DNA of 64,000 nt from an uncultured archaeon (GTDB taxonomy: Archaea; Iainarchaeota; Iainarchaeia; JAADDC01). The stretch covers positions 2,312-66,311 of the forward strand of contig CAZAKL010000002.1 of NCBI GenBank assembly GCA_964486025.1, in the 5' to 3' direction. Numbering within the stretch: the first letter of the stretch is position 1; every line of letters starts with the position of its first letter. Position numbers and translations under genes: made by a program. This document shows positions 9,929-13,671 of the stretch, in pieces. The notes under the pieces are model-generated. The model had not been told where the DNA came from and ran no database searches. It worked only from the letters and a program-made list of their open reading frames with translations.

Positions 9929-9958
9929 TTTATAAATCTCGTGCTTGCGCATTTAAAT
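9929..9958. promoter_or_regulatory. pair of TATA boxes (tttataaat / atttaaata) serving divergent leaderless genes
   Basis: 9929-9937 lies about 30 nt upstream of the minus-strand ATG at 9900. 9951-9958 lies about 27 nt upstream of the plus-strand ATG at 9982. Confidence 0.45.
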
Positions 9959-9981
9959 ACTTCCAGGGCGTATTTTCTCTG

Positions 9982-10743
9982 ATGGCTCTGTTCAAGAGGG
10001 TTCTGGCGGACGCTGCAGATGTGGGCCTCCTTGTGCTTGTAATTCTATTCCTCTACGGCCTCTTCTACGCGTTCGGCTCGGTCCTTTCATCCGTTCAGTC
10101 TGCATACGTTCTCACCATTCTCAGCTCTTCGAATCCGATTCTATCCATGCGGCCAGCGTTTTACGATGCTCTCTCTTCCCTGAGTGACCCCCTGACGCTT
10201 CTTTCCATGCTCATTTATGGCATACTTCTGACGTACCTCTCGCTCGTTGTCATTGGCTGGATAGGTAAAAAACGCATTGGCTACCCCGAGAATCCATTCA
10301 AACGGGCAGTGGAAGCGATTATACCGTTCATTATACTTGGAATCGTTGTATTTGCGCCCATTCTCCTGCTTTTCTCCCTCATGCTCTACTTCTCCTCAAA
10401 CGTTACCCTTCTGGTGACCTTTTTCGTGCTATTCCTCGTCTTTTTGCTTGTCTACGTCCCAATCGTGTCCCCTTCCATGGTTTCCCTCGTTCTCGACGCC
10501 GATTCTGTCTCCAAGGCCCTGAGGAATGGTGTGCTCGTGGGTCGGCGGAGGTGGATACGCATACTCATTTACATGTTTGGTGTGGCGGTTGTCACATCCC
10601 TCTTTCTGTATCTCTTCAACGCGATTGCGATGTACTTCCCGCCGCTCTCCGATTTCCTCCTTGTTCTCTACCAGGCGATATCCTTCGTCCTGCCACTGGC
10701 CGTGCTGACAGAGGTGTATGTGGCGGACACTTACGGTGAGTAG
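9982..10743 (+). CDS. integral membrane protein (about 7 TM), hypothetical
   Basis: 253 aa, highly hydrophobic. The stop abuts the tmcA start. Confidence 0.6.
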   Translation: MALFKRVLADAADVGLLVLVILFLYGLFYAFGSVLSSVQSAYVLTILSSSNPILSMRPAFYDALSSLSDPLTLLSMLIYGILLTYLSLVVIGWIGKKRIGYPENPFKRAVEAIIPFIILGIVVFAPILLLFSLMLYFSSNVTLLVTFFVLFLVFLLVYVPIVSPSMVSLVLDADSVSKALRNGVLVGRRRWIRILIYMFGVAVVTSLFLYLFNAIAMYFPPLSDFLLVLYQAISFVLPLAVLTEVYVADTYGE

Positions 10744-10744
10744 A

Positions 10745-13018
10745 ATGGATTTTGTCAGGGAGGCACTTGAGGCGGCAAAGGTCACTCGTCAGCGTCGGCT
10801 CTTCGTGGTCTCCGGCGACTGGAAGAGGGGCATGAAGGTAGTGGGCAACATACTTCAAGAAGCGAAGAATTACGTGGGGAAGGACCTTCTCTACTTTGCG
10901 GAGTTTCCGAAGGAATCGGATATTGGCGAGCGCCGCTTCAAGGAGTTTGCCAGAAACATACACGGGCTTGGCTACCTCGTCCAGAAGAAGCCCTTTGCCA
11001 TGGCCAACACCGTGCTTGGCAGGACCTATGACGTCCTCGTCCTTGATGCCTATGAGAACTTCCCCCCACGGGACATAGGCATCATAGTGGAGACGGTCCG
11101 CGGTCCGGGTGTCATAATCCTCCTCGTTCCCGAGCTTCCGAAGTGGGTATCCTCTAAGCTTTACTTCCACGGGCAGTACGTCGTCACGCCGCCGTACTCC
11201 GTCGAGGACTGCAGGAACATATTCCTCAACCGGGTTGTGAAGAAGCTCTTCGAGCACGACGGCATATACATTCTCTCCGACGACGGGAAGCTCGTAAAGA
11301 AGCCAAAGGAGAAAAAGGCAAAGAAGAAGGTAAAGAGGCTGAAAATACCGAAGGACAGGGAGTTCCCCGAGGAGATATACAAACTGGCGGTTACTCAGGA
11401 CCAGATTAACGTCATACACGCCCTTGAATCCGTTCCAAAGAATAAGAAGCATGCGTACGTTGTTCTTGCAGATAGGGGGCGTGGCAAGTCTGCCGCTATA
11501 GGTCTTACCCTGGCGGGCATACTTTCCCAGAAAAAATGGGAGGTCATTGTAACCGCACCATCCTTTCAGAACGCTGAAGAGGTCTTCAAATTCATAAAAA
11601 TAGGTCTTGATGCCCTCGGAGTGGAGTATAAAGATAAGAAACGGGAGATAAGGGTCAAATCCGGCGGCGAGGTGGCATTTCTTGAACCGCTGGATACAGT
11701 GGAGCGCAAGGCGGACATACTCGTGGTTGACGAGGCAGCAGGTATTTACGTGTCTATTTTGAAGGCGTTCCTGCGGCGCTACAAGCGCATTATATTCTCC
11801 ACGACTACCCACGGCTATGAGGGAACCGGCCGCCTCTTCCAGTACCGCTTCCTCCCGGCGCTGGAGAAAAAGTTCGAGGTGCACCAGCTCCGTATGAGTG
11901 AGCCCATTCGCTACGGCGAGGGGGACCCCATTGAATCCTGGCTCTATGACGTTTTCCTCCTCGATGCAGAGCCGGCAGACCTTACAAAGAAAGACCTGAA
12001 GGAAATAGAGCAGGGTAAGCTTGTTTTCGAGAAACTGGATGTGGAGAAGCTGTTTCTTGAGGACGAGAAGACGTTGCGCCAGTTTATCGGTATTTACGTC
12101 TACGCGCATTACCGGAACAACCCGCGCGATATTGCAATCCTTGCGGATGCGCCGAACCAGAATGCCTTCGTCGTCAAGACGGAGTCCGGAAAGGTTGTGT
12201 GCTCCCTTCAGGTGGCGGAGGAGGGGGGGCTGCCAAAGGCGGTTATCGACCTGCTTAAGGAGGGAGAAATTGTCCAGGGGAACATTGTCCCCGACCTCAT
12301 GCTCAAGTACTACGGCTACGACAACTTTGCCCGCGCAAAGGGGCTGCGTGTCGTCCGAATTGCAACCCATCCTGAGCTTCAGGGGAGGGGTATCGGTTCC
12401 TTCGGCCTCAAAAACCTCATAAGCTATGCGGTGGAAAACGAGTATGCATGGGTGGGCGCAGTCTTCGGAGCATCCGAGCAGCTTCTCCGATTCTGGCTCA
12501 AGAACGGCTTTATACCTGTCCACGTTTCGCCCAAGCGCAACCCAGAGTCCGGGGAGTATTCTACGGCGGTCCTGCACCCGCTCAGACAGGCAATCAAAGA
12601 TATAATCAATGTATCGAACTTCGGTATGAAGCTGCGCCTTGCCTACGAGCTCGATAATTTCTACAGGAACATGGACCCAGAGGTTGCCCTTCAGCTTTTC
12701 GCATCGGGGGAGCGCAGGGACGTCCCGCTCGACCTCACGACGCCGGAGAAGAGAAAGCTCAAACGCATGGTGGAGGGCGGTCTGCACTACGACGCCGTCT
12801 CGGAGGTCGTATACCGCATGACGATAAACTACTTCATCGGGCGCATGGAGCCGCCCATGGAGGACAAGGACCGCCTGTATCTCATAGAGAAGGTGCTCAA
12901 GAAGCGCACGTGGAAGGGTGTGGGGGACGTGTTCAATAAGGATCCCATGAAGGTCGCGCGGCGGCTGGACAGAATCCTCTACGGGCTTGCCCGCTGGTAT
13001 CTGGGTGAGCTCTCTTGA
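10745..13018 (+). CDS. tmcA: tRNA/rRNA cytidine N4-acetyltransferase (TmcA/Nat10 homolog)
   Basis: DUF1726-like N-terminus, helicase-type Walker A ADRGRGKS, VVDEAA, and a C-terminal GNAT motif QGRGIGS. About 758 aa. Confidence 0.9.
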   Translation: MDFVREALEAAKVTRQRRLFVVSGDWKRGMKVVGNILQEAKNYVGKDLLYFAEFPKESDIGERRFKEFARNIHGLGYLVQKKPFAMANTVLGRTYDVLVLDAYENFPPRDIGIIVETVRGPGVIILLVPELPKWVSSKLYFHGQYVVTPPYSVEDCRNIFLNRVVKKLFEHDGIYILSDDGKLVKKPKEKKAKKKVKRLKIPKDREFPEEIYKLAVTQDQINVIHALESVPKNKKHAYVVLADRGRGKSAAIGLTLAGILSQKKWEVIVTAPSFQNAEEVFKFIKIGLDALGVEYKDKKREIRVKSGGEVAFLEPLDTVERKADILVVDEAAGIYVSILKAFLRRYKRIIFSTTTHGYEGTGRLFQYRFLPALEKKFEVHQLRMSEPIRYGEGDPIESWLYDVFLLDAEPADLTKKDLKEIEQGKLVFEKLDVEKLFLEDEKTLRQFIGIYVYAHYRNNPRDIAILADAPNQNAFVVKTESGKVVCSLQVAEEGGLPKAVIDLLKEGEIVQGNIVPDLMLKYYGYDNFARAKGLRVVRIATHPELQGRGIGSFGLKNLISYAVENEYAWVGAVFGASEQLLRFWLKNGFIPVHVSPKRNPESGEYSTAVLHPLRQAIKDIINVSNFGMKLRLAYELDNFYRNMDPEVALQLFASGERRDVPLDLTTPEKRKLKRMVEGGLHYDAVSEVVYRMTINYFIGRMEPPMEDKDRLYLIEKVLKKRTWKGVGDVFNKDPMKVARRLDRILYGLARWYLGELS

Positions 13019-13326
13019 TGCTCCACTTCCGTCCGGAGTATGAGAAGGATGTGCTCACCGGAAGGAAGAGAATCACCATACGCTACGGCAGGAAATACGA
13101 TGTGCGGCCCGGCAACATCGTTTATCTTGCTGTCCGCGGGAAGCCAATCGCCCGTGCAAAGATTACCCACGTCTACGTTAAAAAACTGAGGGAACTGAGC
13201 GAGCATGAGATAAAGATGGAGGGGTTCAAATCTCTCCATGCCCTCATAAAGCATCTGCGCAGGATATACCCAGATATCGGCCCGGACTCATACGTAACAG
13301 TCCTCCGCTGGAAACTCCTCCGATAG
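13018..13326 (+). CDS. ASCH-domain protein, YqfB-like (putative N4-acylcytidine amidohydrolase)
   Basis: 103 aa. GRKRITIR ASCH signature and a C-terminal IYPD...YVTVLRW region align with E. coli YqfB. The start overlaps the tmcA stop (TGATG). Confidence 0.75.
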   Translation: MLHFRPEYEKDVLTGRKRITIRYGRKYDVRPGNIVYLAVRGKPIARAKITHVYVKKLRELSEHEIKMEGFKSLHALIKHLRRIYPDIGPDSYVTVLRWKLLR

Positions 13327-13365
13327 GTATTTATACGAGGTGTCCCTTCTTTTCAGGGTGATAGC

Positions 13366-13671
13366 ATGTGCAAGGACGCGTATACGCTTGCAATATGGAC
13401 GCTCCTGGTTGTTTCTGCCCTTGTTGGCGCGTACCAGATATATAATATAGCCATCAATCCACAGCTCGCGCCTCAGGCCATTCTGCTCTTGGCGTACGTA
13501 GCTTACGCCATGCCCATTGTCGCACTGGTTCTGTACGCCATAAAGCAGGTACGCTGGCTCTCAGCAGTCGCAGCAGCCCTTGCGGTGGCGCTTGCAAATT
13601 CCATACCAATGGCCACGTTCCTTATACTCTACATTTACGGGACGGTCAGCGGAAAGGAGCAGCGCCACTAA
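13366..13671 (+). CDS. small membrane protein (3 TM), hypothetical
   Basis: 101 aa, hydrophobic. Confidence 0.5.
   Translation: MCKDAYTLAIWTLLVVSALVGAYQIYNIAINPQLAPQAILLLAYVAYAMPIVALVLYAIKQVRWLSAVAAALAVALANSIPMATFLILYIYGTVSGKEQRH

Follow-up and report, generated by a model that had tools for sequence, protein, structure and literature searches.

The tmcA gene of an uncultured archaeon of the Iainarchaeota is overlapped at its stop codon by a gene for a small, stand-alone ASCH-domain protein of the YqfB type, and the same pairing recurs in many lineages of the Archaea. TmcA is the RNA cytidine acetyltransferase that writes N4-acetylcytidine (ac4C), and we favor, at somewhat better than even chances, the hypothesis that the ASCH protein is an amidohydrolase made together with TmcA, which would most likely clear or recycle the ac4C that TmcA generates. 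An initial annotation had read the pair as an ac4C writer accompanied by a candidate deacetylase, either a writer/eraser or a nucleoside-salvage module, and our analysis supports this interpretation. All positions refer to the window, by which we mean the whole analyzed stretch of 64,000 nucleotides.

The gene pair and its putative transcription unit

The pair and the elements that surround it are as follows.

9929..9959, + strand: two TATA-box-like elements (TTTATAAA at 9929-9936 and TTTAAATA at 9952-9959), 23-53 nt upstream of the ATG at 9982
9982..10743, + strand: open reading frame for a multi-pass membrane protein of 253 aa
10745..13018, + strand: tmcA, from the ATG at 10745 to the TGA stop at 13016-13018; 757 aa, RNA cytidine N4-acetyltransferase of the TmcA/NAT10 family, the ac4C writer
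13003..13009, + strand: Shine-Dalgarno-like GGGTGAG, as read from the sequence, inside the 3' end of tmcA and 8 nt upstream of the ASCH ATG
13015..13326, + strand: stand-alone ASCH gene of the YqfB type, 102 aa from the ATG at 13018 or 103 aa from the TTG at 13015, with the TAG stop at 13324-13326
13330..13355, + strand: TATA-like element TTTATA at 13330-13335 with a T-rich run after it, in the gap that separates the ASCH stop from the next gene (ATG at 13366)

Both reading frames lie where the initial annotation had placed them, and the TGATG in which the ASCH ATG at 13018 shares the A of the tmcA stop codon, on the same strand, is present. The overlap is 1 nt if translation begins at this ATG and 4 nt if it begins at the TTG at 13015, which public gene calls take as the start (P0001, MMLHF...). 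The length of 103 aa given earlier is correct for the TTG, whereas a protein that starts at the ATG of the TGATG has 102 aa. With start and stop codons overlapping in this way, TmcA and its ASCH partner should be made together, and the GGGTGAG inside the 3' end of tmcA fits with translational coupling. A similar GGTGAG is located at 10735-10740, upstream of the tmcA ATG, and tmcA could alternatively begin at an in-frame ATG (10718) or at a GTG (10736).

The membrane protein gene is probably co-transcribed with tmcA, because its stop lies only 1 nt before the tmcA ATG. The TATA-box-like pair at 9929..9959 is a putative promoter of a gene string that includes both tmcA and the ASCH gene, and the elements at 13330..13355 would mark the end of the tmcA-ASCH transcription unit and the start of the next. 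The tmcA and ASCH genes are probably co-transcribed and translationally coupled. The 253-aa membrane protein had no match in Pfam or NCBIfam; a gene of 253-257 aa occupies the same position in relatives, whereas in the Thermoplasmatota it is missing upstream of tmcA and SUI1 is found there instead. The membrane protein gene is specific to the window's lineage.

The domains of TmcA follow the order expected for the family, with TmcA_N (PF08351, residues 4-177, E 5e-31), a DUF699-type helicase/ATPase domain (NAT10_TcmA_helicase, PF05127, residues 239-407, E 2e-56) and the GNAT domain (GNAT_acetyltr_2, PF13718, residues 447-562, E 8e-36). The Walker A motif RGRGK (R244-K248) and the GNAT glycines G549 and G551 (QGRGIGS) are invariant in an alignment of 16 diverse archaeal TmcAs; the homologs recovered number 2033 in total. 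The NCBIfam TmcA model scored 498 bits (E 2.8e-149), which is below the 700-bit cut-off of this haloarchaeal equivalog. No match to tRNA_bind_2 (PF13725) was obtained at E <= 0.01 in the window TmcA or its close relatives, whereas the domain is present in the TmcAs of the Thermoplasmatota and others. A C-terminal segment of about 150 residues is present, and it may represent a divergent form of this domain.

A distant relative of YqfB with the catalytic residues retained

The ASCH protein contains the signature octapeptide GRKRITIR at residues 15-22, as recognized in the initial annotation, and this fits the pattern GxKxx[E/T/S]xR; octapeptides of the form GxKxxTxR represent the YqfB “GKTR” class (bioRxiv 10.64898/2026.02.27.708502). 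Residues 2-99 matched positions 1-100 of the 103 in the Pfam ASCH profile (PF04266), with E 3.9e-16 and a score of 60.0 bits where the cut-off is 21.2, and the fold is a PUA-like beta-barrel with flanking helices, as in the ASCH superfamily. No further ASCH genes were found in the window. Among all solved structures, YqfB is the best match by both profile and fold, ahead of other ASCH families: it was the top hit when the family profile was compared with the PDB sequences (residues 4-100 against 6-101, E 1.6e-6), and hhalign of the family against YqfB gave a probability of 95.6% (E 1.3e-8). Profiles and structure were needed for this comparison because the single-sequence match obtained with phmmer was marginal (E 0.1-0.6). 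Thus, the whole-length alignment with YqfB proposed earlier is significant at the profile level but marginal for the single sequence. The NCBIfam equivalog model for YqfB (NF003443) scored 29.1 bits (E 9.4e-7) and its cut-off of 93 was not reached, for which reason we describe the window protein as a distant relative of YqfB and not as an ortholog by NCBI's criterion. An ASCH-domain gene to which no function had been assigned can thus be confidently annotated as encoding a predicted N4-acetylcytidine amidohydrolase.

An exhaustive search at E <= 1e-10 yielded a family of 613 clusters, and this search was used for the family size; a word-index profile search gave mostly Thermoplasmatota and missed Archaeoglobus. 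About 45% of the proteins nearest to the window ASCH in the exhaustive search are long forms of 175-255 aa with a C-terminal HTH-like extension.

The residues K17, T20 and R22 align to K21, T24 and R26 in YqfB and are invariant in clade alignments of 17 and 38 sequences. E68 aligns to E74 in YqfB and is E or D throughout the tmcA-linked clade, and the invariant Y84 aligns to Y89, which holds the substrate through a ribose contact. The Lys/Thr/Glu triad to which the initial annotation had drawn attention is thus kept across the clade, with either E or D as the acidic residue, along with the oxyanion Arg and the ribose Tyr, and all five positions persist across more than 60% sequence divergence. 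In YqfB, the mutants K21A, T24A and R26A are inactive and the activity of E74A is reduced 100- to 1000-fold (PMC6972931). His70 is 100% conserved among bacterial YqfB-like proteins, and H70A lowers the activity about 10-fold; its equivalent is E64 in the window ASCH and D or E in nearly all clade members, and the adjacent H63 is not conserved in the clade.

E. coli YqfB (PDB 9KYF/9KYH, 1TE7; PMC6972931) resembles the window protein in being a stand-alone ASCH beta-barrel of about 103 aa, with GxKxxTxR and with Lys/Thr/Arg, an acidic residue and Tyr at equivalent positions. The window protein differs from it in the low identity of about 25%, in the replacement of His70 by Glu/Asp and in being very basic, with a pI of 10.4 and a net charge of +14, whereas YqfB is acidic with a pI of about 4.7, computed from a sequence in which residues 8-90 were retrieved and the termini are provisional. 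Another difference is that the window gene overlaps tmcA, unlike yqfB, which in E. coli K-12 is presumably located apart from tmcA.

We also considered the possibility that the ASCH protein is a non-catalytic adaptor, whose PUA-like domain would guide or regulate TmcA solely through recognition of RNA or ac4C, much as THUMPD1/Tan1 assists NAT10/Kre33 in the eukaryotes. An RNA-binding helper is conceivable for a lineage in which TmcA gives no Pfam match to tRNA_bind_2, and both the basic charge and the tight coupling of the two genes would agree with such a role. However, pure binding would not explain why the catalytic residues of YqfB have been kept over such divergence, the related protein Afu2ASCH is reported to be catalytically active, and the Thermoplasmatota TmcAs that do have tRNA_bind_2 still retain their ASCH partner. 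We therefore consider an adaptor role very improbable.

The pairing across the Archaea

In a survey with one genome per species, an ASCH gene of the same clade was located downstream of tmcA on the same strand at 20 of the 75 evaluable archaeal tmcA loci. In 19 of these 20 loci it was directly downstream, at -65 to +88 nt from the tmcA stop, and most overlap the stop. The other 55 loci had no linked partner, and the survey recovered no linked ASCH gene in the Thermococci, Thermoproteia and Nanoarchaeota. When we started instead from the ASCH genes, tmcA was found directly upstream with overlapping reading frames in all eight look-ups. The pair is present in Archaeoglobales, Thermoplasmatota, a Hadarchaeota-like MAG, Nezhaarchaeota/Methanomethylicota, Bathyarchaeia and Alkanophaga, and the flanking genes vary by lineage, with SUI1 upstream in the Thermoplasmatota versus the membrane protein gene and Cdc6 in the window. 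Furthermore, pairwise identities in TmcA are correlated with those in ASCH (r = 0.83). The adjacency noted in the initial annotation thus recurs in many archaeal lineages with differing flanks, and the pairing is not due to chance. In an Undinarchaeota MAG (L009), a long-form ASCH gene lies downstream of tmcA at a distance of 2.3 kb.

The genomes closest to the window are uncultured MAGs labeled Diapherotrites, Micrarchaeota or Iainarchaeum. Lhr, tmcA, ASCH, Cdc6, PCNA, PriX and PriS are all syntenic in this lineage, and conservation of the pair inside it therefore proves nothing. It could be argued from this synteny, from the many tmcA loci that lack a partner and from the ability of YqfB to accept various N4-acyl cytosines (PMC6972931) that the substrate of the ASCH protein is a different base, N4-acylated or otherwise modified, and that the position of the gene next to tmcA has simply been inherited. 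Yet the pair is found with unrelated flanks and overlapping reading frames in Archaeoglobales, Thermoplasmatota and others, every look-up that started from ASCH led to tmcA, and the linkage has been reported independently (bioRxiv 10.64898/2026.08.01.741249). We disfavor the idea of an adjacency without functional meaning and give it hardly any credence.

The initial annotation knew of no description of such a system, but this did not hold. Relier et al. report conserved operons in which ASCH genes of the YqfB clade accompany TmcA/Nat10 orthologs and take this as evidence that the ASCH enzyme acts on the ac4C made by the acetyltransferase (bioRxiv 10.64898/2026.08.01.741249, Fig. S1a), and the in vitro deacetylation by archaeal ASCH proteins of both the free ac4C nucleoside and ac4C in tRNA is described in another preprint, which gives no gene-context analysis (bioRxiv 10.64898/2026.02.27.708502). 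The operon of Relier et al. is exactly the arrangement in the window, which is thus a further example of a known arrangement and not a new concept. Their text devotes one sentence to it, with reference to “several prokaryotes,” and gives neither the taxonomic spread, for which we obtained 20 of 75 loci, nor the near-universal overlap of the reading frames or the lack of the pair in Thermococci, Thermoproteia and Nanoarchaeota.

Possible clearance of ac4C or erasure from RNA

By analogy with YqfB, the window ASCH would hydrolyze the N4-acetyl group of ac4C to yield cytidine and acetate, with T20 as nucleophile, K17 as base, E68 as acid, R22 in the oxyanion hole and Y84 holding the ribose. It would be expressed from the same mRNA as TmcA, which puts ac4C into RNA, and would act on ac4C in free form, as nucleoside or nucleotide, and on ac4C that is accessible in the RNA fragments arising during RNA turnover. 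Cytidine that carries the N4-acetyl group is blocked from normal salvage. The enzymatic activity is predicted from YqfB and from Afu2ASCH, a probable ortholog, and salvage is the role that we infer. An enzyme that erases ac4C from RNA and is co-produced with the writer would create a futile cycle, whereas a salvage enzyme that is scaled to the output of the writer would not.

YqfB hydrolyzes the free ac4C nucleoside with a kcat/Km of 2.8e6 M-1 s-1 (PMC6972931), and deletion of yqfB leaves tRNA ac4C unchanged (bioRxiv 10.64898/2026.02.27.708502). The substrates of both YqfB and EOLA1 are free or unstructured ac4C as opposed to native structured RNA. Acetylation impairs the deamination of cytidine. 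Human EOLA1, which salvages free ac4C and acts on unstructured RNA, serves as a model for a salvage role; it is a stand-alone ASCH ac4C deacetylase, as predicted for the window protein, but belongs to another ASCH clade (TRIP4-like) of the GKER type, with Glu for Thr in the motif, and its structural similarity to the window ASCH model is weak (Foldseek E 0.05).

The probable ortholog is Afu2ASCH from Archaeoglobus fulgidus (UniProt O28749), which took no more than 4 h to hydrolyze all of the ac4C nucleoside and also deacetylated tRNA (bioRxiv 10.64898/2026.02.27.708502). Its assignment to the window ASCH clade is made through primer-derived termini: the primers encode MERINL...FEVVK, in agreement with the ASCH protein whose gene is linked to tmcA in an Archaeoglobus MAG (L086), and 17 of 18 nt in the forward primer match this gene exactly at the start codon. 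A search with the 18-nt gene-specific part of this primer against metagenome contigs gave 10 chance matches and no ASCH genes. Like the window protein, Afu2ASCH is a stand-alone archaeal protein of the GKTR type, and the L086 relative shares the clade at 38% identity to the window ASCH; Afu2ASCH differs from the window protein in coming from another phylum and in its moderate identity.

An RNA-level role must also be weighed. The net charge of the window ASCH and its close relatives is +12 to +16, and this strong positive charge hints at nucleic-acid binding. We rejected the charge as a clade-wide sign of RNA binding, because the Aciduliprofundum/DHVE2 subgroup, which is equally linked to tmcA, is acidic to neutral (pI 4.8-7.8). 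The ASCH protein may, as an eraser or proofreader, strip ac4C from intact tRNA, rRNA or mRNA and thereby tune its levels dynamically or remove off-target marks of a promiscuous archaeal TmcA, with which it might be physically associated. Afu2ASCH lowered tRNA ac4C in E. coli despite an active TmcA and removed both ac4C34 and the D-stem ac4C12 in vitro, but the proteins for which EMSA showed a tRNA shift did not include it (bioRxiv 10.64898/2026.02.27.708502). The overlapping reading frames suggest matched production, as is usual for cooperating proteins, whereas unregulated co-expression of a writer and an eraser would waste acetyl-CoA and ATP, and the ac4C of native cellular RNA was left unchanged by YqfB and EOLA1. 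The HTH-like extension in nearly half of the nearest relatives also speaks for a role on RNA, since the C-terminal HTH (AAAD_HTH) of Afu3ASCH and Pku4ASCH, which share the GKTR-type ASCH core, binds tRNA tightly (bioRxiv 10.64898/2026.02.27.708502); the window ASCH has no C-terminal extension. On balance, we regard erasure from intact RNA as a possibility of lower rank, to be held tentatively.

Likewise, TmcA and the overlapping ASCH protein could constitute a physical writer-editor pair, in which the basic ASCH protein binds RNA beside TmcA and hydrolyzes acetyl groups at wrong or temporary sites. We think this is unlikely, but if true, RNA acetylation in these archaea would have built-in proofreading or reset instead of a separate salvage enzyme. 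Counting against the hypothesis that we favor, clearance and recycling of ac4C, are the score of 29 versus 93 bits, the replacement of His70, the pI of 10.4, the action of Afu2ASCH on RNA and the primer-derived nature of the link to Afu2ASCH.

To our knowledge, ac4C is the sole known RNA acetylation. It is abundant in the archaea and responds to temperature. Its reversibility in vivo is disputed, with ASCH proteins presented as tRNA erasers in one preprint from 2026 and as enzymes for the salvage of free ac4C in another. That the writer stop and the start of a matching hydrolase gene have been kept overlapping in six or more major lineages of the Archaea provides strong genomic evidence that a cell making ac4C also has to unmake it. 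The tmcA-ASCH pairs represent compact two-gene systems in which the roles of eraser and salvage enzyme could be separated experimentally.

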